A DNA stretch of 64,000 nucleotides from an uncultured Oscillospiraceae bacterium (GCA_902472555.1 CABROF010000002.1:28404-92403), one strand, 5' to 3'. Numbered from the stretch's first letter, positions 12,354 through 56,225 are shown. Program-made: numbers and translations. The notes: generated by a model from the sequence alone, not told the origin.

Positions 12354-12919
12354 ATCTCAATCCCCTCTTTCTCTAAAAAAAGCTTCAAACGGCCGCGCAG
12401 TCTAAGCAATACCATTTTCACTTTACTTTCGCTTACGGAAAAATCCTGCGCAATTTCTTTAACCGAGCTCAGATACCAATACCTTCTTACAAATATTTTA
12501 CGGCTGTCTGCCGGCAGCGACCAAAGAAAACGATTGATGGCCTCTTTTAAGACAAGCTCCTCTGCCGCGGAAGCGATATGATCCGCTGCCGGAATACACG
12601 CCTCTAATTCGTCCAAAGCAAGCGCAACCGCAGCACAGCCTCTTTTCTTGGCATGATTTTTCTCATACCGATCCAATGCAAGATTGCGCGTAATTTTACC
12701 GAGAAACGAAGCCAGATGTTCCGGCCGGTGCGGCGGCATTGCCGCCCATGCCTTCAGATAAGTGTCATTGGTGCATTCTTCCGCATCTTCATCGCAGCAA
12801 AGAATATGATATGCAATGGAATGGCAGTATCGTCCGTATTTTTTCTGCGTTTCGGATATAGCAGCATCAGCGCGCGCCCAATATAAATCAACGATCTGCT
12901 TATCCTCCACTGTCAACAC
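12350..12919 (-). CDS. RNA polymerase sigma-70 family (ECF-type) sigma factor
   Basis: Region 2 (DTYLKAWAAM) and region 4 HTH (SVKEIAQDFSVSESKVKMVLLRLRGRL). Confidence 0.75.
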   Translation of the reverse strand: MLTVEDKQIVDLYWARADAAISETQKKYGRYCHSIAYHILCCDEDAEECTNDTYLKAWAAMPPHRPEHLASFLGKITRNLALDRYEKNHAKKRGCAAVALALDELEACIPAADHIASAAEELVLKEAINRFLWSLPADSRKIFVRRYWYLSSVKEIAQDFSVSESKVKMVLLRLRGRLKLFLEKEGIEI

Positions 12920-28442: not shown

Positions 28443-29549
28443 CTATCCCAGTATGATGATATCTCCTTCTGACAGCCCCTCCTTTACCTCAACCTTCAGC
28501 GCAGAGGCCAATCCGGTCTCGATATATACTTCCTTTTTCAGGTTATTGGAGTCCAGCATATAGACAAAGGTTCTGCCGTTATATTGATGGCACGCTGCCA
28601 CAGGAACCTGCAGGCAGTTCAAAGAGGAGGCTTCTACATATGTATACGACACCGCATCGCCCGCCTGAATGTCCCGCGGCGGATCAATCATCTGACAGTA
28701 ATACGTGGCATCTGATACGTAGCTGAGCCCGGTATCATTGATTACAGTGCTCGTACTTACAATCTTTCCCTGAAATTCCGTTTTCGTACCATCGCCGGCA
28801 GTTCTGGTCAAAGTGATCTGTGCCCCGACGCCGAACTGTGAAGGCACTGCCATGGTCGCATCATTTGCCGCCTCCGCATCTTTTGCAATCTCAACATACA
28901 GATATTTCTTATCCTGATTATCAATGGCTACCATGGTTTCTCCGGCTACCACGGTTTTATCGGGATCACTGCCTGCAGAATATGCGGTATTGAGATATAC
29001 CACAACACCGGATTCCTTTGCATACAGGACGGTATTCTCATAAGCAGCTTCCGCAATCTGATAATCCCGTTCCACACTCTGAAAATCCAGTTCATTCAGG
29101 CGATAATCCAATGCACTTCTTGTCCCGGCGTTATATTCTCTCGTATATTGCTCAAATTTGATCTGTTCTCTTTCATAAGCAATTTTGGCTCTGATGTACT
29201 GCTCCTCAAGCTCCGTATTATCCAGTTCCACAAGGATATCGCCCTTTCTGACCGTATCCCCGAGGGTTACATGAAACGCCTTTACCTTTGCTCCCGCGGT
29301 TTCAAAAGCATGCTTTGTATAATATACGGAAGCAACGCGCCCTACGCCGGTGGTTCCCATATACAGGTCGCCGCGTTCCACTTTATATTCGTTATAGGTA
29401 ATCGGCTTCGGTGTCTTTAAAATAGGCGCTGCCCCTTCGTCTTCAGAAGGCAGCAGCGCACAGCCTGCCGCAAGCGCGGCAGTCATGATGACAACAAGCA
29501 AAAGCGCCGAAAATCTCGTACCTTTCTTTCCGTTTTTCATTGGAATCAA
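28443..29549 (-). CDS. HlyD-family / efflux periplasmic adaptor subunit, lipoprotein
   Basis: Signal plus lipobox AAGC; coiled-coil and lipoyl-barrel architecture (biotinyl-lipoyl-like VVYLN...GDIIILG). Confidence 0.7.
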   Translation of the reverse strand: MIPMKNGKKGTRFSALLLVVIMTAALAAGCALLPSEDEGAAPILKTPKPITYNEYKVERGDLYMGTTGVGRVASVYYTKHAFETAGAKVKAFHVTLGDTVRKGDILVELDNTELEEQYIRAKIAYEREQIKFEQYTREYNAGTRSALDYRLNELDFQSVERDYQIAEAAYENTVLYAKESGVVVYLNTAYSAGSDPDKTVVAGETMVAIDNQDKKYLYVEIAKDAEAANDATMAVPSQFGVGAQITLTRTAGDGTKTEFQGKIVSTSTVINDTGLSYVSDATYYCQMIDPPRDIQAGDAVSYTYVEASSLNCLQVPVAACHQYNGRTFVYMLDSNNLKKEVYIETGLASALKVEVKEGLSEGDIIILG

Positions 29550-29555
29550 CCTCCC

Positions 29556-30170
29556 CTACCGATGTCTTGATCTGCGTGCCAAAATATCCGGATTTGCTAC
29601 AGAAAAGCCGAAAAAGCCCAACCACTCGCCTAATTGAAAATATTCTCCGTGGCTGTAAGCCGCCAATTCGGCCTTGGCAAGATCAATATTTCCGTTTTGG
29701 TCCATCAGCCGTTCCGCGACATGTACTTTTTTGATCTCACTGATAAACATATCGTGGGAGCCGAGTTCCACAACCTGACGAACCACACACTCAATATTCA
29801 CGGGACTTTCTCCGATCATGGGAATCGGTGCAAAGCTGCCTTCCGTCTTGCTGAGATTCAATTCCCGGAATTTATCCACATCCCGTCCGGACTTTACACC
29901 GCAATAGTCAGCAGCCTTTACCAATGCCCGAGAAACCAGATTTACCGCAAATATTCCGGATTCTTTGATAATCCCATACGAATGGCGCTCTTTTCTGACA
30001 GATACTGAAAGCATCGGCGGATCGGAATTGATGGTTCCCGCCCAGGCCAATGTAATAATATTTGCCTTCTCCATACTTCCGCAGGAAACCATGACAAGCG
30101 GCACCGGATTCAAAAAGGCCGACGGTTTGCTCATCTCAAATTTCGCAATGTTATGATTCAACGTAATCAC
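29556..30170 (-). CDS. Flavin reductase family protein (FMN-binding split barrel)
   Basis: PVPLVMVSCGS...NIITLAWAGTINSDPPMLSVSVR, typical of the flavin reductase-like domain. Confidence 0.7.
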   Translation of the reverse strand: MITLNHNIAKFEMSKPSAFLNPVPLVMVSCGSMEKANIITLAWAGTINSDPPMLSVSVRKERHSYGIIKESGIFAVNLVSRALVKAADYCGVKSGRDVDKFRELNLSKTEGSFAPIPMIGESPVNIECVVRQVVELGSHDMFISEIKKVHVAERLMDQNGNIDLAKAELAAYSHGEYFQLGEWLGFFGFSVANPDILARRSRHR

Positions 30171-30278
30171 CTCATAATGATATATTCATATTATAATATT
30201 TACGATATGCAAGATATATCGACTTAGGTTAAGAAAATATGAATGAATCATAAAATAGCATGAAAATATATCTGCACA

Positions 30279-30312
30279 TAAAAAAGCTGCCCGACTAAAA
30301 TCGGACAGCTTT
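30279..30312 (-). terminator. Rho-independent terminator at the end of the hydrogenase operon
   Basis: Hairpin gctgcccgact...tcggacagc followed on the minus strand by TTTTTTA. Confidence 0.55.
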
Positions 30313-30340
30313 CCTTTATCAAAATAACTTCATATCAAAA

Positions 30341-32110
30341 TCATTCAACCGGATAATTCTCTCTTGCCTGATAATGCGTATGCAGATCATGATGCGCCTG
30401 GTGACTCCCCGGCTTCCCATAATATTCTTCATACAGCTTCTGAATAAACGGATTGTCATGGGATTTCCGAACCGGAAGCGCACGGTCTTCCTCATAAGTT
30501 GCCTTTGCACGTTCCACACGCAGATCAATCCAGCTCCGGATCGCAGACGGCTGAATCACTTGTCCGCCGCCGTTTACGCAGCCGCCGGGGCAAGCCATAA
30601 TTTCAATGAAATCATAGTCTGCTTCTCCTGCGCGAATTTTATCCAGCAAGGCTCTGGCATTGCCGAGGCCGCTGGCCACCGCCAGACGGATCTCCTTTCC
30701 GGCAACATTGACAGTAGCCTCTTTGATTCCTTCAATACCACGGACAGCGGTATACTCAATTGCTTCCACGGGTGCGGATTCTCCGGTCAAAACATCTGCC
30801 ACGGTACGCAGCGCCGCTTCCATAACGCCTCCTGTTGTGCCGAAAATAACACCGGCACCGGAAGCATTTCCCATGGGATCATCAAAATCAGAGTCCTCAA
30901 GGCTCATAAAATCGATACCAGCCTCTTTGATCATCTGCGCCAGTTCCCGTGTCGTCAGCACTACGTCCACATCCGGATAGCCGGAAGCGCTCATTTCCGG
31001 ACGGTCTGCCTCAAACTTCTTCGCAGTGCAGGGCATCACGGATACCACATAAATATTTGCCGGATCAAGGTTCATCTTTTTCGCATAATACGTCTTCAGC
31101 ACTGCGCCGAACATTTCATGCGGCGATTTGCAGGAAGAAAGGTTCTCCAGAAAGTCCGGATAATTATGCTCGCAGAATTTGATCCATCCCGGGCTGCAGG
31201 ACGTGATCATCGGCAGACTGCCGCCATTGGCAATGCGGTTCAGCAGCTCGGTGCCTTCTTCCATAATCGTCAGATCAGCAGCAGTATCCGTGTCAAATAC
31301 CTTATCCACACCGAGACGCCGGATCGCCGTTACCATCTTTCCCGTAGGCCGGGATCCGATCGGCATACCAAAGGCTTCTCCGATGGAAAACCGCACTGCC
31401 GGTGCTGTCTGCACCACCACATGCTTTTCCGGATTTGAAATCGCTTCCCAAACCTGATCCACACTGCTCTTTTCCGTCAGCGCCCCCACAGGACATACTG
31501 CAATGCACTGGCCGCAGTTGACACAGGGCGTTTCTACCAGGGGTTTATTAAATGCGCAGCCTACCTTCGTGCGGAATCCCCGCTCCAAAGTTTCAATTAC
31601 CCCGACAGTCTGCACTTTTTTGCAAACGCTCACGCATCTGCGGCATAAAATGCATTTGTTCGGATTGCGTACAATTGACGGAGATAAATCATCGATGGGC
31701 TGCAGTGCGTGCTGCCCGGACAAATCCTTAAAGCGGATTTCCGTTACATTTAAGTCCTTGGCCAGCTTCTGCAGCTCACAGTTTTCAGAACGTACACAGG
31801 TAAGACAGTTTCTGTCATGGTTGGACAGAATCAGCTCCAACGTCACCTTGCGCGCTTTTCTAACCTTCTCGGAATTTGTAATAACCGCAAGGCCTTCGGA
31901 TACGGGGTACACACATGCAGCCTGCAGCGCTCTTGCACCTTTGATCTCCACGACGCACATCCGGCAGGCACCGATCTCATTAATATCTTTCAGAAAACAG
32001 AGTGTCGGTATTTTGATATTTGCCTTCCTGGCCGCTTCCAGAATCGTAATTCCCTCCGGAACCTCCAGGGCGACACCATCTATTGTAATATTGACCATCT
32101 TCATGACCAT
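30341..32110 (-). CDS. hydA: [FeFe]-hydrogenase catalytic subunit, NADH-dependent HydA type
   Basis: N-terminal 2Fe-2S (MVNITIDGV..CRMCVVE), two 4Fe-4S ferredoxin motifs and H-cluster motifs (TSCSPGW-like, MPCTAKKFE, IEIMACPGGCVNGGGQ). Confidence 0.9.
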   Translation of the reverse strand: MVMKMVNITIDGVALEVPEGITILEAARKANIKIPTLCFLKDINEIGACRMCVVEIKGARALQAACVYPVSEGLAVITNSEKVRKARKVTLELILSNHDRNCLTCVRSENCELQKLAKDLNVTEIRFKDLSGQHALQPIDDLSPSIVRNPNKCILCRRCVSVCKKVQTVGVIETLERGFRTKVGCAFNKPLVETPCVNCGQCIAVCPVGALTEKSSVDQVWEAISNPEKHVVVQTAPAVRFSIGEAFGMPIGSRPTGKMVTAIRRLGVDKVFDTDTAADLTIMEEGTELLNRIANGGSLPMITSCSPGWIKFCEHNYPDFLENLSSCKSPHEMFGAVLKTYYAKKMNLDPANIYVVSVMPCTAKKFEADRPEMSASGYPDVDVVLTTRELAQMIKEAGIDFMSLEDSDFDDPMGNASGAGVIFGTTGGVMEAALRTVADVLTGESAPVEAIEYTAVRGIEGIKEATVNVAGKEIRLAVASGLGNARALLDKIRAGEADYDFIEIMACPGGCVNGGGQVIQPSAIRSWIDLRVERAKATYEEDRALPVRKSHDNPFIQKLYEEYYGKPGSHQAHHDLHTHYQARENYPVE

Positions 32111-32117
32111 CTTCCTC

Positions 32118-33908
32118 CTATTCTTTCACAACCGCACCGAATTTACACTTATCCATGCAGGCGCCGCATTTGATGCATTTGCTTTGATCAATGACAAACG
32201 GTTTCTTCACCTCGCCGCTGATACAGCCAACCGGGCAATTCTTGGCACAAAGGCTGCAGCCTCTGCACTTATCCGGAAGTATTTTATACTGCATCAAAGC
32301 CTTGCATACGCCGGCAGGACATTTCCGGTCAACGACGTGGGCGATATATTCATCTTTAAAATACCGCAGCGTACTGAGGACCGGATTCGGCGCAGTCTGA
32401 CCGAGTCCGCAGAGTGCGGAATTCTTGATCGCAGCCGCCAAATCATACAAATCATCAATATCAGACAATTCGCCCTTTCCGCTTGTAATTTTGTTAAGAA
32501 TATCATACATGCGCTTGGTTCCGATTCGGCACGGAGGACATTTGCCGCAGGACTCTTCAACCGTAAATTCAAGGAAGAATTTTGCAATGTCAACCATACA
32601 GGTATCTTCATCCATAATAATCAATCCGCCGGAGCCCATCATGGAGCCGATCTCGATCAAGGTATCATATTCAATCGGCGTATCAATCAAATGCGCGGGA
32701 ATGCATCCGCCGGAGGGTCCGCCGGTTTGCGCTGCTTTGAATTTCTTTCCGTTCGGAATACCGCCGCCGATATCATATACGACTTCGCGCAATGTGGTCC
32801 CCATCGGAATTTCCACCAGCCCGGTATTTTTGATTTTTCCGCCGACTGCAAATACTTTCGTTCCTTTGCTGCGTTCGGACCCGATGGAAGCAAACCAATC
32901 TGCGCCGTTCAGAATAATCTGCGGAACATTGGCATAGGTTTCCACGTTATTTAAAATCGTCGGTTTTTGGAACAATCCTTTCACCGCAGGGAACGGCGGT
33001 CTCGGTCTCGGTTCTCCCCGATGGCCTTCGATACTGGTCATCAACGCAGTCTCCTCACCGCACACAAACGCGCCGGCGCCTAAACGGATTTCTACGTCAA
33101 AAGAAAAGTCCGTACCGAAAATATTCTTTCCGAGCAGCCCGTATTCTTTTGCCTGGGCAATTGCAATCTGCAGCCGATGCACGGCAATCGGATATTCCGC
33201 TCTTACATAAATATAACCTTGGTTGGATCCGATCGCATATCCTGCAATTGCCATTGCCTCCAGAACAACATGGGGGTCGCCCTCCAGAACGCTCCGGTCC
33301 ATAAATGCGCCGGGGTCCCCTTCATCCGCATTGCAGCAGACATATTTTTGATCAGAGACGCTTCTGCGGGCAAAATCCCATTTTCTTCCCGTTGGGAAGC
33401 CCGCACCGCCGCGGCCCCGCAATCCGGACTTCAGCATGACATCAATAACCTCTTCCGGCGTCATCTCCGTTATCACTTTTCCTAACGCCGCATATCCGTC
33501 ATACGCAATATATTCGTCAATATTTTCGGGATTGATTCTGCCGCAGTTGCGCAGCGCAATCCGCATTTGCTTTTTAAAGAAATCCGTATCCTCCGCATCT
33601 GCGTTGGCAGCCGCTTCATGCGCTCCTTCCAACAGACGTTTTACAATACGCCCCTTGAGTAAATGCTCATATACGATTTCCTTGACATCCTCTTTCGTTA
33701 CACGGCAGTACATGGAACCTTCCGGATAAACGACCACAATGGGGCCTTCGGCGCACAAGCCGAAGCATCCCGTCTTTACCATCTTGATCTCGTTTTCCAA
33801 GCCGGCTTCTGCTATGTACTTTTCAAACTCCTGAAACAAGATCTGGGAGCCTGATGAAGTACATCCCGTTCCGCCGCAAACCAGTACATGCGCTCTGTAT
33901 ATCTGCAT
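32118..33908 (-). CDS. hydB: NADH-binding hydrogenase subunit, NuoF-like (51 kDa, FMN/4Fe-4S)
   Basis: GRGGAGFPTGRKW FMN site, NuoF soluble-ligand-binding and 4Fe-4S motifs, C-terminal 2x[4Fe-4S] ferredoxin. Confidence 0.9.
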   Translation of the reverse strand: MQIYRAHVLVCGGTGCTSSGSQILFQEFEKYIAEAGLENEIKMVKTGCFGLCAEGPIVVVYPEGSMYCRVTKEDVKEIVYEHLLKGRIVKRLLEGAHEAAANADAEDTDFFKKQMRIALRNCGRINPENIDEYIAYDGYAALGKVITEMTPEEVIDVMLKSGLRGRGGAGFPTGRKWDFARRSVSDQKYVCCNADEGDPGAFMDRSVLEGDPHVVLEAMAIAGYAIGSNQGYIYVRAEYPIAVHRLQIAIAQAKEYGLLGKNIFGTDFSFDVEIRLGAGAFVCGEETALMTSIEGHRGEPRPRPPFPAVKGLFQKPTILNNVETYANVPQIILNGADWFASIGSERSKGTKVFAVGGKIKNTGLVEIPMGTTLREVVYDIGGGIPNGKKFKAAQTGGPSGGCIPAHLIDTPIEYDTLIEIGSMMGSGGLIIMDEDTCMVDIAKFFLEFTVEESCGKCPPCRIGTKRMYDILNKITSGKGELSDIDDLYDLAAAIKNSALCGLGQTAPNPVLSTLRYFKDEYIAHVVDRKCPAGVCKALMQYKILPDKCRGCSLCAKNCPVGCISGEVKKPFVIDQSKCIKCGACMDKCKFGAVVKE

Positions 33909-33925
33909 GGTATTTCCTCCTCTAA

Positions 33926-34294
33926 TCAGTCATTTACGGCGCCGATCGTATATTCTGTTACGACTCTGCCATTTACAATGTGATCTGTCACGACCTTGAC
34001 AGCTTTTTCTGCATTCATTTTCACATAGGTTACTTTGTTGCCTTCCTGATCGATCACTTCGACGATGGGCTCAAGTCTGCACATCCCGATGCAGCCGGTC
34101 ATGGAAACCGTTGCATTGCTGATATTCCGCTTGGCAAGCTCCTCAACAAACGTATTCATAACAGGACGCGCACCAGCGGCAATTCCGCAGGTCGCCATAC
34201 CAACTACGATCCGCAGGCCATCCTGTGAATTTCTCAGATTTATATCAGCTTTGGCCTTTTCCTTCAGGGCTTTCAGTTCTTCCAATGATTTCAT
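33926..34294 (-). CDS. Thioredoxin-like [2Fe-2S] ferredoxin (HndB-like)
   Basis: 122 aa; CGIAAGARP...CIGMC spacing typical of NuoE-like thioredoxin-fold Fdx. Confidence 0.7.
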   Translation of the reverse strand: MKSLEELKALKEKAKADINLRNSQDGLRIVVGMATCGIAAGARPVMNTFVEELAKRNISNATVSMTGCIGMCRLEPIVEVIDQEGNKVTYVKMNAEKAVKVVTDHIVNGRVVTEYTIGAVND

Positions 34295-34847
34295 TTAAAA
34301 CACCTCCGAAAATATTTGTTACCTCTTCATCGATACTTTCCTTTATCCATACCATAATATCGTATTCCGTAATCGGAACATCTCCAAGCTCTCTTTTTAC
34401 CTCACGCGTATCGAAAACAAACGACTTCTTACCGGCTGACAGGGTAAGCACAAAATCAATCTTCGGACTTCCCATAATCAGATACCGTACGCTGTCCCCC
34501 ACATCCCCTAAGGGCAGACGGTCAATATGACTGATACAAAACTGTCCTATAATCGTAGTGCCTTTTCCCGGCTCAGACCAAAGCTCAATCCCGCCGTCCG
34601 CTTGTTCGCAGGCCAGTTTAAAGAAAGGAATTCCCATGCCGACCTTTCTTGTCGTACGGCTGGTGGTAAAGGGATCCGCCACATTTGCCAAAAATTCCGC
34701 GCTCATCCCGCAGCCGTTGTCCGAAATGATGACACGGAGCAAATCGGCATCAGGCTCTGCTTCAATCGCAACCGAAACAAGCGCCGCACCGGCAGATACG
34801 GAGTTTTGTACCAGATCCATGATATGCAGCGAGATATCTCTTAACAT
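34245..34847 (-). CDS. HATPase_c histidine-kinase-like ATPase (anti-sigma-factor-type serine kinase fold) inside the hydrogenase operon
   Basis: N-box/G-box: HIMDLVQNSVSAGA...ISDNGCGMS...GMGIPF. Confidence 0.7.
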   Translation of the reverse strand: MLRDISLHIMDLVQNSVSAGAALVSVAIEAEPDADLLRVIISDNGCGMSAEFLANVADPFTTSRTTRKVGMGIPFFKLACEQADGGIELWSEPGKGTTIIGQFCISHIDRLPLGDVGDSVRYLIMGSPKIDFVLTLSAGKKSFVFDTREVKRELGDVPITEYDIMVWIKESIDEEVTNIFGGVLNEIIGRTESPEGKGQS

Positions 34848-34849
34848 GA

Positions 34850-35338
34850 TTATTCCTTATATTTGGCCAAGATCCCCGGTACCTCATCCGGAACCAGACG
34901 ACCGTAAACATCGTCATTAATCGTGAAAACCGGTGCTAACCCGCACGCGCCGATGCATCTGCACGCTTCCAAGGAAAATCTTCCGTCCTCCGTACTGTCT
35001 CCGACCTGCAGATTCAGCTCCTCCTTGAGTTTGTCCAATACAAGATCCGCGCCTTTTACATAACACGCGGTTCCAAGACATACGGAAATTTTATATGCAC
35101 CCTTCGGTTTCAGCGAAAATTGGGTATAAAACGTAACGACACCGTAAATTTCCGCTAAAGGGATCTTCATCTCTTCTGAAATCACTTTTTGAACAGGAAG
35201 CGGCAAATAACCGTATATTTCCTGAGCCTCATGCAGTACCTGAATCAGTGCGCCGGGCTTATCTTTGTTGCTGTTAATTACTTCTATCAGCTTGTCGTGC
35301 TTTTCGTCGGCACAACAGCCTCCACATCCGTTTTCCAT
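34850..35338 (-). CDS. hydC: NuoE-like [2Fe-2S] hydrogenase subunit
   Basis: CLGTACYVKG...CRCIGACGLAP 24-kDa subunit motif. Confidence 0.85.
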   Translation of the reverse strand: MENGCGGCCADEKHDKLIEVINSNKDKPGALIQVLHEAQEIYGYLPLPVQKVISEEMKIPLAEIYGVVTFYTQFSLKPKGAYKISVCLGTACYVKGADLVLDKLKEELNLQVGDSTEDGRFSLEACRCIGACGLAPVFTINDDVYGRLVPDEVPGILAKYKE

Positions 35339-35366
35339 CCTGAGATAACCTCCTATTCAATTTATA

Positions 35367-35381
35367 AAGGGATGTAACACA
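35367..35381 (-). promoter_or_regulatory. Small hairpin (ggatgt-aac-acatcc) in the 120-nt PHP/nuoE spacer; possible internal attenuator
   Basis: Perfect 6-bp stem with T-rich flank on the minus strand; separates the regulatory genes from hydCBA. Confidence 0.25.
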
Positions 35382-35458
35382 TCCTTTCAATTATATCATC
35401 GCCCCTATCGCAAATCAATCAACTTTTTAAATAATTTGCAATATTTCTTTAAATTTTG

Positions 35459-36229
35459 TTACGAAACGATTCTTCCTTTTTTCAGTGCCTCCACCACCCC
35501 CGCGGCGGAAAGTGTCTCCACTTCTATAAACGTAACGGCTTCCTGTATTTTATCGATATAATGCGCATCAGAAGCCCGAAGCAGCCGGTATTGCTCCAGC
35601 AACGGATATTGTAGCAAAAGCTGCTCCACAGTACAATCGCAAGATATTTCCACAAAAGGCAGCGCATAGCCGTAGGGCAGCGTACCGAAGCTGGTAAGCA
35701 CGCTGTAAGAATCTCGGTCTACATGGGCCGGATACGCAATGCCGTCCAGCCGGTCTGCAATAGAAAACACATCGTCAATCGAAATGCCGGTAGGAGACAG
35801 AAGCATATGGGAAAGAGCGCCTGTCGGCTCGTCATTTTCATTAAAAATCAGCTGATCACCAAAAATTTCCGGCCGATTCTCAGCCGGTACGTATGATTCA
35901 TCTACTATTTTTTGAAACGCCTCCAGCGCTTCGATCGTTTTAAACAAACAAACCACATGGATTTCCTCTACGGATTCCAGCTCCATTCCAGGGACGACGA
36001 CTACGCCCATTGCTTTTCCGATTGCAACAGCCGCACGTACATTTTGACTGCTGTTATGATCCGTAACTGCGATCGCATGCAAACCGTTGATGGCTGCCAT
36101 GCCTACGATATTGCCCGGCGTCATCATTTCATCACCGCACGGCGACAGCGCGGAATGCATATGCAGATCCACTGCAGCTCTGATCAATGTACTGTGTCCT
36201 CGTTCCATAAATACATCATTTATCCTCAA
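35459..36229 (-). CDS. PHP domain phosphoesterase
   Basis: VDLHMHSALSPCGD...AIAVTDHNS PHP motifs. Confidence 0.75.
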   Translation of the reverse strand: MRINDVFMERGHSTLIRAAVDLHMHSALSPCGDEMMTPGNIVGMAAINGLHAIAVTDHNSSQNVRAAVAIGKAMGVVVVPGMELESVEEIHVVCLFKTIEALEAFQKIVDESYVPAENRPEIFGDQLIFNENDEPTGALSHMLLSPTGISIDDVFSIADRLDGIAYPAHVDRDSYSVLTSFGTLPYGYALPFVEISCDCTVEQLLLQYPLLEQYRLLRASDAHYIDKIQEAVTFIEVETLSAAGVVEALKKGRIVS

Positions 36230-36548
36230 GCAGACGATTTACTTTAATAATCACTTCAGCAGCGGTCATTTCCGTGGACAGCAGCGTCACTTCTTTTTGA
36301 TCGGCCCGTTCAATCAGGCCGTCGTACACCTCGACATTTTCCGGAATTACGACGCAGCCGACATCCGCAAGAGAGGCAACCGCAATTACATTAATGTTAT
36401 TCATAACCGTTACCCAGAGGTCTCCCGGCGCGGCATGGGAAATCACCCAGCTCAGCAGGTCGCAGGTATAGACGCCGCTGATTTCTCTGTCCGGATCGCC
36501 GGACAGCAGCTTCATATCCAGCCTGTTTGCAATTTCAGATACTTTCAT
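36216..36548 (-). CDS. DRTGG domain-containing protein
   Basis: 110 aa with the AVASLADVGCVVI DRTGG-like core. Confidence 0.65.
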   Translation of the reverse strand: MKVSEIANRLDMKLLSGDPDREISGVYTCDLLSWVISHAAPGDLWVTVMNNINVIAVASLADVGCVVIPENVEVYDGLIERADQKEVTLLSTEMTAAEVIIKVNRLLEDK

Positions 36549-37873
36549 GTGTTTGAATCCTCCCTATCCATAACCGGGGGCATCATCCCCTCCAGCACAA
36601 TCATCTGCTGTGCCAGTTCTCTGACTTTTTCACGTAATATAAAAATACAATCCGTAGTGCTTGCATAGCCCCGCACCACGTCCTCCGCCAGCGCTCTGCA
36701 GCTCGGCGCGCCGCAGGCGCCGCAGTCAAGTGCCGGCAGCTGTTCATAAATTTCGTTCATATTCCGCAGCTTTTTCATCGCCTCGGTGATATCGCTGTCC
36801 AATGTCGTAACATCCCGGTGGGTCGGCACCACCTCCCATGCATTTTCCTGAAGCTCTGTATCCGATACCGGGTACAGCATCCGCGGCGTCATATTGATAT
36901 ACCGCCGATTTCTGGTTTTGGCCACATACAGATTCTCCACTGTAAGCGGGCCGCCCAGGCAGCCTCCTGTGCACGCAGAAGCCTCGATAAAATCAACATC
37001 CTCTATTTTATCGTTTTCCAGCTCATCAAAAATATGTACAACATTCTGGATCCCGTCGACGGAAAGCACCTTATCTGTCTTCAGCGCCAGCGCCTCCCCG
37101 CCCGTAGAAGCCCATCGAATCCCCTTATGACCAGCCTGAAGAAAATTCTCCACTTCCTTGTCCTTCATTTTGGACAGCAGCTTCAGCAGCTTAAAATAAA
37201 TGGTCTTAATGGAAAACACGCCATCCACATTAGACCTTTTCAATTCAATCGGCGCCCGGACGCTCGTCATCTTCGCGGCACAGGGCGATATAAAAAACAC
37301 GCCTACATCCTCCGGCGCAACATGATTGGCCTCGCAGAACTCTCTCCGGGCGTTCATAGCGGAAATCTCCATAGGAGACTTCACCGGTACTAAATGCGGA
37401 ATCAGGCTGGGAAACCGCACTTGGATAAGCCGCACCACCGCAGGACAGGCAGACGAAATCAAAGGCAGCTCTGTGTCCGGCTTTTCCATCAGGCGGTCCG
37501 TTGCTTCTGTTACGATTTCCGCGCCTCTCGCCACTTCGTACACATAATCGAAACCCAGCAGTTTTAGTGCATATACGATATGCTCTCTCGTATAATTTTG
37601 ATTGAACTGCATGTACAGCGTAGGCGCCGGCAATGCCACCGTATATTGATAATCGGCTAAAATATCCAGTGAATCCGTATGTGCGACCTTTGCACGATAC
37701 GGACAGATCCGCACGCATTCTCCGCAGTCAATGCAACGCTCATTCATAATCCGCGCTTTGCCTTTTCTGACTCTGATTGCATCCGTGGGACATCGTTTGA
37801 TACAATTTGTACAGCCTTTGCACAGGCGTTCGTCCAGTTCGACAGAATGGAAATAATCAGACATATGTATCAC
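36545..37873 (-). CDS. Sensory-type [FeFe]-hydrogenase-like protein (HydS/HfsB-like) with degenerate H-cluster motifs
   Basis: N-terminal 2x[4Fe-4S] ferredoxin. H-domain carries SSACPAV (TSCCP with the first Cys changed to Ala), FISPCAAKMTS and EASACTGGCLGGP, plus an extra C-terminal CGACGAPSC cluster. Confidence 0.7.
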   Translation of the reverse strand: MIHMSDYFHSVELDERLCKGCTNCIKRCPTDAIRVRKGKARIMNERCIDCGECVRICPYRAKVAHTDSLDILADYQYTVALPAPTLYMQFNQNYTREHIVYALKLLGFDYVYEVARGAEIVTEATDRLMEKPDTELPLISSACPAVVRLIQVRFPSLIPHLVPVKSPMEISAMNARREFCEANHVAPEDVGVFFISPCAAKMTSVRAPIELKRSNVDGVFSIKTIYFKLLKLLSKMKDKEVENFLQAGHKGIRWASTGGEALALKTDKVLSVDGIQNVVHIFDELENDKIEDVDFIEASACTGGCLGGPLTVENLYVAKTRNRRYINMTPRMLYPVSDTELQENAWEVVPTHRDVTTLDSDITEAMKKLRNMNEIYEQLPALDCGACGAPSCRALAEDVVRGYASTTDCIFILREKVRELAQQMIVLEGMMPPVMDREDSNT

Positions 37874-37875
37874 CT

Positions 37876-38319
37876 TTATTGTATGTTTACGATGAGTGTT
37901 ACTGCTGTACCCTTTCCTACCGTACTTTCAATTTTCAGTTCATCCGTATAACGCTTCATATTCGGCAGACCCATTCCTGCCCCGAAACCCAGCTCCCGGA
38001 CGGTTTCCGAGGCAGTAGACCACCCCTCCTGCATTGCCTGGTCAATATTCGGAATGCCTGGTCCGTTGTCAGAGATCACCACAATAATCTTTTCCGGACT
38101 GATTGCAACGTCCGCGGCTCCGCCGCCTGCATGTATCACCGCGTTGATCTCCGCCTCATACATGGCAATCGCAACCCGTTTCACCACATTGGGCGCTACG
38201 CCGAGCCGGTTCAGCGTCTTTTTGACGCCGCTGGAAGCCTCGCCCGCTGCTGAAAAGTCTTCGGCATCTATGTCATAATGCAGTTTTACAACCGCGTCTC
38301 CCGTTTCATTCAATTCCAT
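37876..38319 (-). CDS. HATPase_c serine-kinase-like ATPase (second copy)
   Basis: Start set at MELNETGD (ATG 38319); AEINAVIHAGGG...ISDNGPGIPN...GFGAGMGL motifs. Confidence 0.65.
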   Translation of the reverse strand: MELNETGDAVVKLHYDIDAEDFSAAGEASSGVKKTLNRLGVAPNVVKRVAIAMYEAEINAVIHAGGGAADVAISPEKIIVVISDNGPGIPNIDQAMQEGWSTASETVRELGFGAGMGLPNMKRYTDELKIESTVGKGTAVTLIVNIQ

Positions 38320-38663
38320 ACACCTCGCCCCACAATACCGGCACTGTACAACTTTCCGCAGGCAATAAACAGCGGGTGATTCGTGGTCAGTACAATAATT
38401 CCTTTTTCCTTTGCCAATTCGACGATCTGCTCTCCGGGAACCTTTCCCCGTACAAAACAAATCACCCGGATATCCATCATTTCCGCAGTTCTCACTACCT
38501 GCGCATTTACCAGACCTGTGCACAAAATGACACTCTCTTTTACGAATGCCATCACGTCACTCATCAGGTCTGCACCGCATCCGGAATAAACCTCCAGATC
38601 CAGATGATCCTCCCCGGTCAATACCTTCGCTTCAAGAATTTTAATGATTTCGCTTACTTTCAT
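38310..38663 (-). CDS. DRTGG domain-containing protein (second copy)
   Basis: 117 aa, paralogous to 36216..36548 (MKVSEI...LLSWV/LMSDV...). Confidence 0.65.
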   Translation of the reverse strand: MKVSEIIKILEAKVLTGEDHLDLEVYSGCGADLMSDVMAFVKESVILCTGLVNAQVVRTAEMMDIRVICFVRGKVPGEQIVELAKEKGIIVLTTNHPLFIACGKLYSAGIVGRGVWN

Positions 38664-38681
38664 GCATTACCCGCCCTTTCG

Positions 38682-41339
38682 TTATTTGCCTGCTTTTTTC
38701 AGCAGAGAAGCCAGTCTTTCCGCAACGCTTTGATGCATCATCGTGTATTTCGCTTGTTTTTCTTTTTCTTCGGATATCACCTTTTCCGGCGCCTTTGCCA
38801 GAAATCCCGCATTCCCGAGCTTCGCATGCACGCGGGCAAGCTCCTCCGCAAGCTTTGCCTGTTCTTTTTTCAGCCGTTCAATCTCTTTTTCAAAATCGAT
38901 CAGATCCTCCAGCGGAATATATACTTCCACCGTATCCACAACCGCTGATGCCGCATCCTCCGGGATCCCGTCCTTATTCGGCTGAATCGAAATACCCGAA
39001 GCATATGCCAGCCGCTGAAAATAAGGCTCCGCCTCTTTCAAGAACGCGCCGTACCGGCCGGTCACAAACAAGAGCTGCGCTTTTTTTGCCGGCGGCACAT
39101 TCATTTCCTGCCGGATATTCCGAATACTGCGGATAACGCCGATTACAAGCGACATCTTCCGTTCCTCCTCGGCATAGTTCATGGAGGCCTGATATTCCGG
39201 CCATTGGGATATCATAATGCTATCCGCATCATGGTACAAGCTCTGATAAATTTCTTCTGTTACAAACGGCATAAACGGATGCAGCAGCTTCATGCAGGTT
39301 ACCAATACCGCATTCAGTACATACTGCGCTTCAAGGCGCGTTCCGTTTTCGGGATCAAACAGGCGCGGCTTTACCAGTTCAATGTACCAATCGCAATATT
39401 GGTCCCATATAAAATCATACACCTTTGAAAGGGCAACGCCAAGTTCATATTTATCCAGATTTTCCGTAACCTCACGCACAAGCTGATTGACGGAAGAAAG
39501 GATCCACTTATCCGCGGCAGTAAACTTCTGCGGATCTACGGCGTCAAAATCCGGATTTTCATCAAAATTCATCAGCACAAAACGCGTTGCATTCCAGATC
39601 TTATTGGCAAAATTTCTGGCAGCTTCAACCTTTTCCTCCAAAAAGCGCTGATCATTTCCGGGTGCGTTTCCGGATATAAGCGCGAAACGCAGTGCGTCAG
39701 TTCCATATTTATCGATAATCTCCAGCGGATCAATGCCGTTTCCTAAGGATTTGGACATTTTTCGTCCCTGTGCATCGCGGATCAGGCCGTGAATCAGCAC
39801 ATGATGGAACGGCGCTTCTCCCATCTGCTCCAGGCCTGAAAAAATCATCCTGGCTACCCAGAAGAAAATAATATCGTATCCGGTTACAAGGACATCCGTG
39901 GGATAAAAATATTTCAGATCCGCAGTCTCTTTCGGCCATCCCAAGGTAGAAAACGGCCACAGCGCCGAGCTGAACCAAGTATCCAGCGTATCAGGATCCT
40001 GCTCAAATTCCCTGCAGCCGCAGGCCGGACAGCACGCCGGCATGGTTTTCGCAACCTCCGTATGGCCGCAGTTTTTGCAATAATAGGCAGGAATCCGATG
40101 TCCCCACCACAGCTGCCGCGAAATACACCAATCCTGAATATTCTCCATCCAATTATAATAGATCTTTGAAAAACGGTCCGGAACAAATTGAACCTTTCCG
40201 CTGCGCACCGCTTCAATAGCCGGCTCTGCCAGTGGCTTCATTTTCACATACCATTGCTTGGAGACCACCGGCTCCACTACGGTTCCGCAGCGCTGACAGG
40301 TTCCTACATTATGACGATGCGGCTCGGTTTTCACCAACAGGCCCAGTGCATCCAAATCCTGAATAATCTGCCGGCGCGCCTCATAACGGTCCATACCGCA
40401 GTATTTTCCGCCGTTTTCATTGATCCTGCCCCGATCGTCCATAATGCGGATCACAGGCAGACCGTGACGCTGCCCAACCTCAAAATCATTCGGGTCATGG
40501 GCAGGCGTAATTTTGACTGCTCCGGTACCAAATCCAAGCTCCACATACGAATCCGCAATCACCGGGATTTCTTTGTTTACCAAGGGCAGAATTAATTTTT
40601 TCCCAATTATATCTTTATATTTCTCATCCTCCGGATTGACTGCCACCGCGGTATCGCCCAGCAGGGTTTCCGGCCGCGTAGTCGCGATAATCAGCGCGCC
40701 GCTGCCGTCTGCAAACGGGTAGCGGATATGCCAAAAGCTTCCGTCCATTTCTTCATATTCCACTTCAATATCGGAAATCGAGGTATTGCACTTCGGACAC
40801 CAGTTCGTAATCCGCTCCCCCCGATAAATCAATCCTTTTTGATAGAGACGCAGAAAAACCTCCAGCACCGCTTCCGAAAGGCCCTCGTCCATTGTAAAGC
40901 GTTCCCGGCTCCAATCGCAGGAGCTTCCCATGCGTTTCAGCTGTTCAATGATTCTGCCGCTGTAATGCGCTTTCCACTCCCAAGCGCGCTCTAAAAAGGC
41001 TTCCCGTCCGATATCCTCTTTTTTCAGGCCTTCTTTGGCCAGCGCATCCACAATTTTGGCTTCGGTCGCAATACTCGCATGATCTGTACCCGGCAGCCAC
41101 AGCGCCGCATAGCCCTGCATACGTTTAAACCGGATTAAAATATCCTGAAGCGTATTGTCCATCGCATGTCCCATATGCAGCTGACCGGTGATATTCGGAG
41201 GCGGGATTACAATCGTATACGGCTTTTTATTCGGATCTGCACTGCAGCCGAAATACCCTTTCTCTTCCCAATTTTTATAAATTCTTCCTTCTGCCTGGGA
41301 AGGTTCATATACCTTTGCCATCTGTTCTGCCGCTTTCAT
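38682..41339 (-). CDS. valS: Valine--tRNA ligase
   Basis: HMGH ([16 protein letters not shown]) and KMSKS motifs, 885 aa with a C-terminal coiled coil. GGAGG RBS 12 nt upstream. Confidence 0.95.
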
Positions 41340-53502: not shown

Positions 53503-53663
53503 AACAATCCATCCTTTTTCCTTTGATTATACCAAAAAGATGAAATGTTCATAATTTATTATTTCATGCGTTCGTCGTGGTCATGCAATCGGCATCATAT
53601 TCACATTTTGTGCATTATGAGGGACTCCTGCATGAAGAGCAACAGTCCCTCGAATCCATACCT

Positions 53664-54533
53664 TTACGCTTTTTTCTTACGCAAATATATTCCGCCAAAC
53701 ACAAGACCGACTGCCAGCAGAACAATGCAGAGCGAAATGCCGCCCCATAGCAAATACTTGTTTGTATTGTCCGACGCTGTAACAGCATTGTCGTTGCCAA
53801 TCGGAATTTTTGCATTTCGGTTAAAAGTATTTGCGTTAATATCGTATGGTGATAAATCCCAAACACCACCGATATTGATTCCTCCCGGGGGGGTATCAGC
53901 GTCCATTTTACCGTATACGGCTTTCATCAATTCGAAAAAATCCGCCGCAGGAAACAAATACTCTTTTCCGCCAGTCAAGTAATACTTATAATAAACATAA
54001 TCACCTTTATTCGTTTCATAGTACAGTGCCGTACCTTGGTGGTTGGATTCACCCCAAAGATAATAAACATTTTTGACCGTAATATCTGACGATATTTTAT
54101 CGAGACCTTTTTGATTTAAAAATGCAGATAGCGTCTCTGCGTCACAGATGTATTGTTCGTCATTCATCTTTACAGATTTCATATCATCTGTAATTGATTG
54201 AACTGATAAAACATTTTTGTTCGATACAATCGCATATAATGTCTGAAGGACATGCTTACTTTTCATGATCTCATCGATGCTGCCATATTCACTAAAAGCA
54301 TACACTATAGGTATGTTATATATTTTTACAACATTATTAGAGCCCTCAGTATCAAGAATATTTAATATTTCCTTGCTTACATACTTCGAACTGTATTCAT
54401 TCATTCCAGCAGAATTTTCCGTAATTTTGCTGATCAACTCTTCTTTTTTCATAGTTTCCTCCGCATGAATCGTTAGTGGCATGACTGCAATTATAGTCAA
54501 GAGCAAGCATAATATTACCATAATTCTTTTCAT
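53664..54533 (-). CDS. Secreted, C-terminally membrane-anchored protein of unknown function (paralog A)
   Basis: Signal peptide MKRIMVILCLLLTIIAVMPLTIHA; C-terminal TM plus KKKA tail. AT-rich, with AAAGGAG RBS. Confidence 0.6.
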   Translation of the reverse strand: MKRIMVILCLLLTIIAVMPLTIHAEETMKKEELISKITENSAGMNEYSSKYVSKEILNILDTEGSNNVVKIYNIPIVYAFSEYGSIDEIMKSKHVLQTLYAIVSNKNVLSVQSITDDMKSVKMNDEQYICDAETLSAFLNQKGLDKISSDITVKNVYYLWGESNHQGTALYYETNKGDYVYYKYYLTGGKEYLFPAADFFELMKAVYGKMDADTPPGGINIGGVWDLSPYDINANTFNRNAKIPIGNDNAVTASDNTNKYLLWGGISLCIVLLAVGLVFGGIYLRKKKA

Positions 54534-54705
54534 TATATAGACACTCCTTTACCAAAATAAATTTTTATATTTATCCTGTGTTTAATTAAAATTCAATTTC
54601 AAACAGGAGTAAGGGTATTACCGGAATAGCTTGTATTCACCACTACAAAACTTCCCATATACCGGTATCTGGTTGTTCACCATTCAAAGCATTCAGTCCA
54701 TACCT

Positions 54706-55524
54706 TTACGCTTTTTTCTTACGCAAATATATTCCGCCAAACACAAGACCGACTGCCAGCAGAACAATGCAGAGCGAAATGCCGCCCCATAGCAAATACT
54801 TGTTTGTATTGCCCGACGCTGTAACACTGTTATTGTCGTTGCCAGTCGGAATCTTTACATTCAAGTTAAAGGTGCTTGCGTTAATATCGTATTTTGATAA
54901 ATCCCAAACCCCGTTGATAGCTACCCCACCATATGAATCAGCATATTTTTTTCTTTCATCAGAGATTGCTTTTTGATACATGCAGAACTCTTCTATCGGA
55001 AACAGGTATTCCCCTTCACCGAGTTCATAGTAATTATAATAAACGTAGTCACCTTTGTTTGTTTCATAATAAATCGCCGTACCCATATGATTTGTTTCGC
55101 CTGAAAGGTAGTAAGTATTATAAATTACTATATCTGATGAGACCTTTTCTATTATTTTGTCATTTTGAAAAGCATTCAATGCCTTTTGATTGCTGCTATA
55201 TACTTCAAATTCGTGACATTCACCATCATAAATTGCCTTATATTCGAATAAGCCGTTTGAAGATTTCACAGCATAATAAATCTGTAATGCTTCATTGCCT
55301 GCCAATACCTCACTGATGTTGCTATATTCGGTAAAAGCAAAGCGTAATGGAATATTATAAATTCTTATAACCTCCTCATCTTCTTGCAAGGCAAGCTGTT
55401 TTTTTATTTCCTCACTGATCGTTGTTGAATCTTCTTTTTTCATATTGTCCTCCGCATAAATTGTAAGTGTCATACACGAGATAACAAGTAAGGTTACTGC
55501 TAATAATATAATTACTTTTTTCAT
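54706..55524 (-). CDS. Secreted, C-terminally membrane-anchored protein of unknown function (paralog B)
   Basis: MKKVIILLAVTLLVISCMTLTIYA signal; shares the core YYETNKGDYVYY and an identical C-terminal anchor with paralog A. TATAAT plus AAAGGAG upstream. Confidence 0.6.
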   Translation of the reverse strand: MKKVIILLAVTLLVISCMTLTIYAEDNMKKEDSTTISEEIKKQLALQEDEEVIRIYNIPLRFAFTEYSNISEVLAGNEALQIYYAVKSSNGLFEYKAIYDGECHEFEVYSSNQKALNAFQNDKIIEKVSSDIVIYNTYYLSGETNHMGTAIYYETNKGDYVYYNYYELGEGEYLFPIEEFCMYQKAISDERKKYADSYGGVAINGVWDLSKYDINASTFNLNVKIPTGNDNNSVTASGNTNKYLLWGGISLCIVLLAVGLVFGGIYLRKKKA

Positions 55525-55788
55525 AATAAACACTCCTTTATTAAATTATATCACGAAAATTCCCGCGGTATATATTATATTGTATGTCTAATTCCCGATT
55601 TGCGGAGTATTCTCCATTTTTCCATGCTTTAACAAGATTTGTAATGTTAAACGTATTATCTGAAACGGTAATAGATGTATAGATCGGTTGAGATTTTCCA
55701 TTGTTTACATTTTAGAAATCAGAATCCATAGCCTTGTTGTGAACAGTGTAAAATTCGCCGCAACAGGCAAGTGAAATAAACCATTGTA

Positions 55789-55830
55789 AAAAGCGCAAAA
55801 ACCGACTTACACAGCGGCTTTTGCGCTTTT
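55789..55830. terminator. Bidirectional terminator-like hairpin (aaaagcgcaaaa...ttttgcgctttttt)
   Basis: 9-bp stem flanked by an A-run and a T-run, in the AT-rich gene-less part of the islet. Confidence 0.45.
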
Positions 55831-56193
55831 TTAAAGGATTAATAAATGATACCTTTCACATGGTATGAAAAGCAAATTACTCAATTGCGGATCGCCGCTG
55901 TAATATGATATACTGTCAATTATAACCATATTTTTGGGCCCCTTGTAACACTGATTGGAATAAAACTCCATTTTTATTATATAAATATCATAAATAAATC
56001 GAACTGTCAACAGTTCATACAAAAACAAATAAATACTTACTCTACAAGACCCGTCTTTTGTATTTAGCACCATATTCTTTAAGAAAATAAAGAAGTCCAT
56101 AATCCTTTGAACACCCTGAAAACGGGCGTTTTTTATTTTAAAGAAAACACTTGTAAAAAATGATTTTTCGCAGTATGGATACAAAAGTCAGGG

Positions 56194-56225
56194 TTTATTT
56201 GTAAAGCATGGCGCCATTGCACGGC
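56194..56225 (+). repeat. 32-bp perfect direct repeat, right copy
   Basis: Identical to 53097..53128. Confidence 0.9.

Follow-up and report, generated by a model that had tools for sequence, protein, structure and literature searches.

A putative Group D sensory [FeFe]-hydrogenase cassette upstream of a predicted electron-bifurcating hydrogenase operon in an uncultured Oscillospiraceae bacterium

Analysis of a 64,000-nucleotide stretch of DNA from an uncultured Oscillospiraceae bacterium (GCA_902472555.1, CABROF010000002.1:28404-92403; the whole stretch is termed the window) revealed a five-gene cassette around HydS. By its sequence this protein is a putative sensory [FeFe]-hydrogenase of Group D (M2e) and an ortholog of TamHydS of Thermoanaerobacter mathranii, and its cassette is followed on the same strand by an operon for a predicted electron-bifurcating hydrogenase, HydABC. 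We assign a probability of about 0.6 to the reading that the H2-sensing HydS cassette and the HydABC operon constitute one functional system in which the cassette adjusts HydABC. The locus is an ordinary member of a described and very widespread cluster: the family and the arrangement have been in the literature since 2010-2012 and one member has been studied biochemically since 2020. An original prediction, made from the sequence alone, had described a sensory hydrogenase accompanied by two ATPases, two DRTGG proteins and a PHP phosphatase upstream of hydC, fdx, hydB and hydA.

Results and Discussion

Organization of the locus

Features of the locus, in order of transcription:
41339-38682, minus strand: valS
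38310-38663, minus strand: DRTGG-1, 117 aa with a single DRTGG domain, first gene of the sensor cassette (Pfam PF07085, E 7e-6)
37876-38319, minus strand: HATPase-1, SpoIIAB/RsbW-like GHKL ATPase, 145-147 aa (Pfam HATPase_c and HATPase_c_2)
36545-37873, minus strand: HydS, 442 aa, or 439 aa from the alternative ATG at 37864 (the start chosen by gene callers)
36216-36548, minus strand: DRTGG-2, 110 aa, paralogue of DRTGG-1 (Pfam PF07085, E 8.5e-7; weak Hpr_kinase_N match)
35459-36229, minus strand: PHP-family metal-dependent phosphoesterase, 242-256 aa, start uncertain between 36187 and 36229 (Pfam PHP and PHP_C)
35390-35441, minus strand: promoter-like site for hydC (TTGATT-17-TATAAT with extended TG, 35390-35418) and degenerate Rex-like box (TTGCAAATTATTTAAAAA, 35424-35441)
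35370-35384, minus strand: small hairpin GGATGT-gtt-ACATCC (GGATGTgttACATCC)
34850-35338, minus strand: HydC, NuoE-type thioredoxin-like [2Fe-2S] subunit (PF01257, E 8e-51; NuoE and HoxE models also match)
34245-34847, minus strand: HATPase-2, a 200-aa stand-alone GHKL ATPase (Pfam HATPase_c and HATPase_c_3)
33926-34294, minus strand: HydD-like small subunit, the "fdx" of the original prediction, 122 aa, thioredoxin-like fold, three Cys (PF01257 at 19.5 bits, below the cut-off)
32118-33908, minus strand: HydB, NuoF-type FMN/NAD subunit with an N-terminal [2Fe-2S] and C-terminal 2x[4Fe-4S]
30341-32110, minus strand: HydA, catalytic group A6 [FeFe]-hydrogenase, L1 motif TSCSPGW
30279-30316, minus strand: intrinsic terminator downstream of hydA (16-bp stem, then a U-run)

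All genes are read from the minus strand in the order valS, DRTGG-1, HATPase-1, HydS, DRTGG-2, PHP, a 120-nt spacer, HydC, HATPase-2, HydD, HydB and HydA. The region appears to form two transcription units, a five-gene, translationally coupled unit 1 from 38663 to 35459 and a unit 2 from 35338 to 30341, which comes with a promoter-like site of its own plus a strong terminator and would encode the A. woodii-type electron-bifurcating HydC-HydD-HydB-HydA, with a second GHKL ATPase between hydC and hydD. Start and stop codons of the cassette genes overlap or lie 2 nt apart throughout: HATPase-1 starts 4-10 nt before the end of DRTGG-1, the GTG of HydS follows the end of HATPase-1 by 2 nt and the start of DRTGG-2 overlaps the HydS stop codon (ATGA). 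DRTGG-1 begins 18 nt after the valS stop (38664-38681), and in unit 2 the start of HydD overlaps the end of HATPase-2 by 50 nt, an overlap that measures 32 nt in the closest relative (locus L002 of the comparative set below). A longer HATPase-1 open reading frame (ORF) reaching back to 38523 was discarded as an artefact. The identical gene-for-gene locus is also present in several public metagenome assemblies and in one metagenome-assembled genome (MAG) at NCBI.

Two DRTGG proteins and a PHP protein were thus found where they had been predicted, their domains being confirmed by Pfam. The original prediction had placed all partners upstream of hydC; this holds for four of them, and HATPase-2 (34245-34847) sits between hydC and hydD, inside the operon.

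HydS is a putative Group D hydrogenase

Pfam divides HydS into a Fer4 dicluster (residues 11-61), a Fe_hyd_lg_C domain (77-309, E 8e-40), with PF02906 matched across the full profile length, and a PF04060 "FeS" domain (379-411, E 1.4e-12). Its 17 Cys comprise eight in two ferredoxin-type CxxCxxCxxxC motifs for the N-terminal 2x[4Fe-4S] (Cys 18, 21, 24, 28 and 47, 50, 53, 57), four ligands of the H-cluster, four C-terminal residues and C180, which belongs to none of these sets. The ferredoxin-like 4Fe-4S motifs and the aberrant L1 motif SSACPAV that had been read from the protein at 36545-37873 are both there on the minus strand (L1 at residues 140-146). The same is true of the L2 and L3 motifs said to be retained, FISPCAAK at 194-201 and EASACTGGCLGGP at 297-309 (EASACTGGC), and of the extra C-terminal cluster, in which CGACGAPSC (384-392) and C409 make up a Cx2Cx4Cx16C pattern (C384, C387, C392, C409) within the PF04060 match.

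The replacement of the proton-relay Cys by Ala, with the ligand Cys kept, was likewise borne out. In a phmmer search against PDB sequences the HydS segment "LPLISSACPAVVRL" was aligned with "LPMFTSCCPAWVKF" of HydA2 from the hydrogen-dependent CO2 reductase (HDCR), and because the alignment to solved hydrogenases sets A142 opposite the first Cys of TSCCP and C143 opposite the cluster ligand, Ala occupies the position of Cys299 (CpI numbering). We aligned 26 homologous sequences of 56-75% identity. A142 is found in 26/26, S140, C143, P144 and the C-terminal Cys are invariant too, and so are the H-cluster ligands C143, C198, C301 and C305 (C300, C355, C499 and C503 of CpI). Met353 is replaced by S196 in HydS and by Ser (19) or Thr (7) across the 26 sequences; exchange of this Met for a hydroxyl residue (Ser or Thr) is the M2e pattern according to Land et al. 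2020 (PMC8163306). The position of Met497, held by S299 in HydS, is variable in the family (17 Leu, 6 Ser, 2 Cys, 1 Ala). A frameshift or pseudogene as the cause of the odd L1 was rejected, since the ORF is intact and colinear with the 26 homologues and the Ala is invariant.

Comparison with TamHydS, the biochemically studied member, relied on its coding sequence from the supplement of PMC13104023, which contains optical character recognition errors and frameshifts and hence yielded local alignments. HydS matched it in tblastn over the whole length (E 1e-93) with 44-56% identity in the readable stretches, and the L1, L2, L3 and C-terminal motifs agree. TamHydS has A137 at the Cys299 position. 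Residues E252, E289, D265 and S249 of TamHydS form a proposed proton pathway specific to Group D, and with a constant offset of +8 they correspond to E260, E297 and D273 of HydS, all three invariant, and to T257.

Profile searches separated HydS from the catalytic enzymes. The NCBIfam models of groups A and B gave it 105-142 bits against cut-offs of 406-900 (TIGR02512, 122.7 bits with a cut-off of 405.95; NF040763, 104.7 bits with a cut-off of 765), and its identity to HydA of the same window is 22%. Assignment to catalytic group A was rejected on these scores and on L1, which reads SSACPAV rather than TSCCPxW; neither an intact TSCCP nor a group A placement emerged. No PAS domain was found in HydS among Pfam matches at E<=0.01, and the protein ends 33 residues past its last Cys; membership of Group C (M2f) was rejected because of this missing domain. 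The AlphaFold2 (AF2) model of HydS (pLDDT, for predicted local distance difference test, 85; predicted TM-score, pTM, 0.82) has the [FeFe]-hydrogenase fold, with a TM-score (TMq) of 0.60-0.66 to DdHydAB, CbA5H and CpI; there were no group C or D structures among its best PDB structure matches. The HydS family counts at least 7996 proteins at E<=1e-10, with the same length and domain set among the 120 matches listed. The predicted sensory rather than catalytic class (C or D) is therefore supported as a Group D (M2e) family assignment, the sensory function itself being hypothetical for every Group D enzyme.

Conservation of the cassette

We fetched 87 related loci, 80 of which came from a metagenome scan with an alignment as query, and scored the first 84 by tblastn with the window proteins, excluding two duplicates. 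Denominators count only loci with enough flanking DNA, and the fractions are descriptive only, since the loci are not phylogenetically independent and several gut contigs are near-duplicates. HATPase-1 directly precedes HydS in 72/75 loci and is itself preceded by a DRTGG gene in 65/73; DRTGG-2 directly follows HydS in 68 of 76 loci, and PHP comes after DRTGG-2 in 52 of 69. The order of ten genes was confirmed in C. thermosuccinogenes. Seven loci (L040, L054, L056, L059, L061, L062, L078) hold minimal HATPase-1 and HydS pairs with neither DRTGG nor PHP, which marks the SpoIIAB-like ATPase as the core partner. Toward the closest relative L002, identity is 86% for DRTGG-1, 82% for HATPase-1, 75% for HydS, 63% for PHP and 59% for DRTGG-2.

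HydA and HydB lie within 10 kb of the cassette in 20/33 loci, 18 times downstream on the same strand and twice divergently, with further divergent cases in shorter loci. HydABC is absent within 10 kb in the other 13/33, an arrangement common in gut-derived contigs, where the cassette is located among housekeeping genes such as ileS and valS.

At several loci (L071, L072, L074, L011, L051, L067) two or three HydABC-type operons surround one HydS cassette, and a second, distant HydS-like gene of 26-29% identity is present in L071 and L075. One sensor may serve several hydrogenases.

These data bear on two other views of HydS. It could be a slow but genuine catalytic or redox module, for instance for high-affinity H2 uptake or electron buffering, which acts alone and for which the neighbours provide no signalling pathway. 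TamHydS does catalyze H2 evolution and oxidation near the thermodynamic potential, it has a dedicated alternative proton pathway with residues conserved in the window HydS, and the two N-terminal [4Fe-4S] clusters make up a normal electron-transfer relay. However, the specific activity of TamHydS, ~0.1 umol H2 per mg per min, compares poorly with group A turnover of 10^4-10^5 per second, and the cassette lacks a conserved gene for an electron-acceptor partner. As HATPase-1 adjoins HydS in 72/75 loci, and start and stop codons overlap or are 2 nt apart, a functional complex is argued for, and we consider an independently acting HydS quite unlikely.

The cassette might also respond to a cue other than H2, for example CO, O2 or the redox state of the cell, perceived at the H-cluster or at accessory Fe-S clusters. 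DRTGG domains are found in metabolite-regulated enzymes, which counts in favor of such a cue. The C-terminal cluster of TamHydS is also unresponsive to H2, and the enzyme reacts unusually with CO and O2 (PMC8163306). Nevertheless, the strict conservation of the four H-cluster Cys ligands and of the proton path argues that H2/H+ chemistry is under selection, and most loci link the cassette to an H2-metabolizing enzyme. Sensing of a different cue thus appears very unlikely, and H2 is retained as the probable input of the cassette.

Accessory proteins of the cassette

The claim of two serine-kinase-type ATPases may hold for HATPase-1, which is SpoIIAB-like, and had to be given up for HATPase-2, the predicted fold of which is more fully covered by PMS2/MutL and TopoVI-B than by kinase catalytic domains. 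HATPase-1 matches the SpoIIAB model TIGR01925 with E 5e-16 and 58.8 bits, far short of the equivalog cut-off of 135, its best PDB sequence matches are the anti-sigma F factor (1til, 1l0o) and RsbW (E 7.6e-8), and NCBI and JGI label its homologues "anti-sigma regulatory factor". The ATP-binding boxes are conserved in both ATPases; those of HATPase-1 (N, G1 and G2) are retained across 64 orthologs.

DRTGG-1 matches the DRTGG region of the CBS pyrophosphatase 3l2b among PDB sequences. DRTGG-2 shares with it the motif D-x-[LM]-S-x-V, whose Ser is S35 in DRTGG-1 and S33 in DRTGG-2, as well as a conserved Thr. In PHP, the HxH, TDHN, E, H and SDAH residues of the metal-ligand motifs are conserved in 50 orthologs. 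A second, weak PHP-domain protein of 427 aa is encoded at 315-1598 on the minus strand (E 1.2e-5, just under the Pfam cut-off), beside gyrA/gyrB-like genes.

The bifurcating hydrogenase and its ATPase

The hydCDBA operon is predicted to encode an electron-bifurcating HydABC of group A6/A3 and the A. woodii type. HydA scores 922.7 bits with the model of NADH-dependent group A6 enzymes (NF040763, cut-off 765) and has A. woodii HydA1 as its best PDB sequence match (7q4v, E 5.5e-230), and HydB combines Complex1_51K, NADH_4Fe-4S, an N-terminal 2Fe-2S and 2x Fer4 domains. The L1 motif of HydA, TSCSPGW (residues 303-307), has a Ser at the [4Fe-4S]H ligand position Cys300 (CpI numbering). The same Ser (Ser301) was reported as a curiosity in A. 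woodii HydA1, where the Fourier-transform infrared (FTIR) signature is unaffected (Katsyv et al. 2023, PMC10021017). Since 32 of 33 HydA-type matches of at least 50% identity among the related loci carry TSCSPGW, the Ser ligand looks like a rule for this HydA clade.

The small gene between HATPase-2 and hydB had been taken for a ferredoxin. Its product instead has three Cys (C36, C68, C72), one fewer than the thioredoxin-like [2Fe-2S] set, and corresponds to the HydD subunit, of which the A. woodii version is "predicted to contain no cofactor" (PMC6288185). A gene for a flavin-reductase-domain protein (29556-30170, minus strand) is situated directly 3' of the hydA terminator, in the same place as in the closest relative (L002/L005); in L007 such a gene comes after HATPase-2. 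The hydrogenase operon may thus have it as a conserved neighbour.

Of the GHKL proteins, HATPase-2 is one with the catalytic domain only and without a phosphoacceptor (DHp) domain. Its AF2 model (pLDDT 87, pTM 0.83) shows a C-terminal extension, made up of an alpha/beta unit of two strands and a helix and of a 30-residue helix. The widest Foldseek alignments of this model, those with PMS2/MutL, GRP94 and TopoVI-B, span 166-221 columns (TMq 0.26-0.55), as against only ~110 columns for histidine-kinase catalytic domains; the label "serine-kinase type" is hence unjustified. The best sequence matches are histidine-kinase catalytic domains. HydD comes next after HATPase-2 in 35/41 cases, and the gene in front of HATPase-2 is HydC in 33 and PHP in 7 (e.g. 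L066, L081, L071), so it travels with the boundary between cassette and HydD and not with HydC.

This distribution also suits an explanation in which the accessory proteins, especially the operon GHKL ATPase with HydD, DRTGG and PHP, act post-translationally on HydABC, and not by way of gene expression, as an ATP-driven assembly, quality-control or activity-switch system, HydS reporting a functional H-cluster or H2. HATPase-2 is embedded in the structural operon ahead of the cofactor-less HydD (35/41), it is tied to the cassette in the 7 loci where it directly follows PHP, its model aligns full-length with two-domain GHL ATPases (PMS2/MutL, TopoVI-B, GRP94), and no DNA-binding output protein is encoded nearby. 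The TM-scores of 0.26-0.55 are nonetheless moderate, the closest sequences are those of kinase catalytic domains, and cassettes exist without an adjacent HydABC. Moreover, the literature searched places the ATPase in no purified complex, and among four purified bifurcating hydrogenases only the A. woodii enzyme has the extra HydD (review, PMC6288185). We therefore regard a post-translational assembly or activity switch as rather unlikely and keep to a sensory cassette that adjusts HydABC.

Regulatory signals

The spacer between PHP and hydC contains the best sigma-70-like site on the minus strand within the scanned region 29500-39500. A hairpin had been proposed to separate the two halves of the locus. 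It exists at 35370-35384 and begins 6 nt past the -10 element; as a terminator between the halves it was rejected, because it lies after a promoter-like -10, no qualifying T-run was found in the terminator scan and the fold of the spacer is marginal (z = -2.25 vs shuffles). It is more likely a 5' untranslated region or operator element. The 79-nt stretch 30262-30340 with the hydA terminator has a minimum free energy of -27.4 kcal/mol (z = -5.7), and 0/200 shuffles fold as well.

Directly abutting the -35 element is the Rex-like box at 35424-35441. Rex control in the window is uncertain, since this best box has 3 mismatches to the consensus. Among the relatives, boxes with at most 2 mismatches were found upstream of hydC in 19/41 cases, upstream of DRTGG-1 in 6/78 and in 0/41 control regions, and C. 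thermosuccinogenes has perfect Rex boxes upstream of hydC. Rex controls the bifurcating hydrogenase in Caldicellulosiruptor (PMC8579813), and the boxes upstream of hydC in the relatives fit this known control of bifurcating hydrogenases.

The 18 nt that separate valS from DRTGG-1 contain no promoter-like site, and transcription of the cassette may therefore continue from valS. In detached cassettes of gut lineages valS (L047) or ileS (L024) is located just downstream of the cassette, a recurrent tRNA-synthetase neighbourhood. An Rfam search found no known RNA element or riboswitch at the locus, and one tRNA only in the window.

Partner-switching targets were sought among the window ORFs of at least 80 aa chosen for scanning, and none matched STAS, PP2C or a response regulator. 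The only sigma factor among the scanned ORFs is of the extracytoplasmic function (ECF) type (12350-12919, Sigma70_r2 and r4_2), ~22 kb from the cassette. It is followed by a 329-aa ORF without a Pfam match (11364-12919 for the pair, minus strand), which may be its anti-sigma factor. Elsewhere, a stretch at ~53600-56200 has a GC content of 0.34, compared with ~0.49 in the rest of the window, and contains three ORFs without a Pfam match (53664-54533, 54706-55533, 55831-56184); it may have been horizontally acquired.

A proposed model of H2 signalling to HydABC

In the mechanism that we propose, HydS would bind H2 at its H-cluster, with the canonical proton relay disabled by the Cys to Ala exchange; owing to the disabled relay it is proposed to turn over slowly and to dwell in reduced states. 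The tightly linked, SpoIIAB-like HATPase-1 would read the resulting conformational change and either phosphorylate the two DRTGG proteins or switch binding between them, and the PHP enzyme would reverse the DRTGG modification. The output would be an adjusted expression or activity of HydABC, possibly through the pair of GHKL ATPase and HydD in the operon, and Rex-type redox control of the hydC promoter would act alongside the output of the cassette.

Several observations weigh against this model. As the original prediction had already pointed out for sigma factors and response regulators, none is encoded within ~8 kb of the cassette, and neither is a STAS protein. HATPase-1 scores far under the equivalog cut-offs of SpoIIAB and RsbW. 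Fusions of HATPase-1 with DRTGG or HydS are absent from the best 120 of 8000 homologues, so that no natural fusion proves a physical partnership. To our knowledge DRTGG has not been described as a kinase substrate, nor PHP as a protein phosphatase of partner switching. Because the cassette also occurs with no HydABC nearby, HydABC need not be its only target, or a target at all. In addition, structures of MutL and TopoVI-B cover the modelled HATPase-2 more fully than kinase catalytic domains do. Finally, H2 sensing in vivo has been shown for no Group D enzyme (PMC8163306, PMC10407848, PMC13104023).

More specifically, the run of DRTGG, HATPase-1, HydS, DRTGG and PHP could be a previously undescribed, non-canonical partner-switching module or phospho-relay, with DRTGG in place of STAS, PHP in place of PP2C, HydS as the H2 input and the GHKL ATPase-HydD pair as an output that would switch the bifurcating hydrogenase post-translationally. 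We put this forward as a tentative and somewhat doubtful proposal. The SpoIIAB-SpoIIAA-SpoIIE and RsbW-RsbV-RsbU modules resemble the cassette in that a small dimeric-type GHKL serine-kinase homologue is found beside small single-domain proteins and a phosphatase-class enzyme. The cassette differs from them in having no STAS, PP2C or adjacent sigma factor and in having DRTGG and PHP in those positions, the likeness being one of layout only. Lacking the STAS, PP2C and sigma components that define partner-switching modules, the cassette should not be classed as one.

Comparison with known systems

The "monomeric sensory D M2e" hydrogenases listed by Carere et al. 2012 (PMC3561251) are five locus tags away from the first one given for an A1 TR(M3) bifurcating hydrogenase, and from this synteny Group D enzymes were classed as sensory in 2012. 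Their clusters, Cthe_0335 (with Cthe_0340-0342), TTE0887, Athe_1292, Csac_1857, Cphy_3798 and Teth39_1463, belong to C. thermocellum, Caldanaerobacter, Caldicellulosiruptor, C. phytofermentans and Thermoanaerobacter, and an intervening histidine/serine kinase was noted (PMC3561251). The offset of five tags equals the window order HydS, DRTGG-2, PHP, HydC, ATPase, HydD, and Cthe_0339, flanked by Cthe_0338 and Cthe_0340 (hydC and the gene after it), carries a histidine kinase annotation. There is no architectural difference between these clusters and the locus studied here, in which 18 nt part valS from the cassette.

TamHydS is an enzyme of low activity and higher H2 affinity, and its gene lies upstream of those for a trimeric bifurcating hydrogenase, beside one for a histidine-kinase-like ATPase (PMC8163306). 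It was characterized by Land et al. 2020 (PMC8163306), Cabotaje et al. 2023 (PMC10407848) and Schumann et al. 2026 (PMC13104023); H2 does not reduce its C-terminal cluster, and H2-induced changes of secondary structure were proposed as the signal. With the window HydS it shares the 2x[4Fe-4S], the H-domain, the Cx2Cx4Cx16C cluster, the lack of a PAS domain, the L1 and L2 sequences ISSACPAVVRL and FFISPCAAK and the residues of the alternative proton path, in addition to its position upstream of the trimeric enzyme and beside such an ATPase. In contrast, TamHydS has Leu at the Met497 position, where the window HydS has Ser; its locus as published mentions an AraC-family neighbour and leaves DRTGG and PHP genes unmentioned; and its host differs from the uncultured, mesophilic-looking Clostridia MAG of the window.

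The Group C (M2f) enzymes TmHydS of Thermotoga maritima and HydS of Ruminococcus albus also have the Cys299 to Ala exchange and a C-terminal four-Cys cluster, are of low activity, and are encoded in linkage with bifurcating hydrogenases and with Ser/Thr kinases or phosphatases. Unlike HydS of the window, they carry a C-terminal PAS domain. The same logic, a catalytically poor hydrogenase as H2 sensor with a kinase-type ATP-binding partner that controls hydrogenase genes, is seen in HoxBC with HoxJ, the group 2b regulatory [NiFe]-hydrogenase. It is unrelated in metal site and in protein families, and HoxJ, a histidine kinase that contains PAS, has HoxA as its response regulator. The HydABC(D) enzymes of A. 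woodii and T. kivui (Katsyv et al. 2023, PMC10021017) are to be likened to the presumed controlled enzyme of the window and not to the sensor; HydA is most similar to A. woodii HydA1, and both have TSCSPGW.

Significance

The H2 yield of fermenters, in guts and digesters as well as among biofuel strains, is set by electron-bifurcating hydrogenases. The way in which cells perceive H2 and adjust these enzymes is recognized as an open question; in the case of Group D, Land et al. [quoted passage not shown] On the sensor itself the window adds nothing new. The literature searched makes no mention of DRTGG, PHP or partner switching in connection with these hydrogenases, and the minimal HATPase-1/HydS pairs, the stand-alone cassettes and the tie of HATPase-2 to the boundary between cassette and HydD go beyond the literature that we found. 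The comparative work yields testable candidates for the pathway: a five-gene cassette in which conservation of the ATPase and of the first DRTGG protein exceeds that of the sensor, pairs reduced to ATPase and HydS, cassettes detached from hydrogenase operons, and a second GHKL ATPase that travels with HydD.

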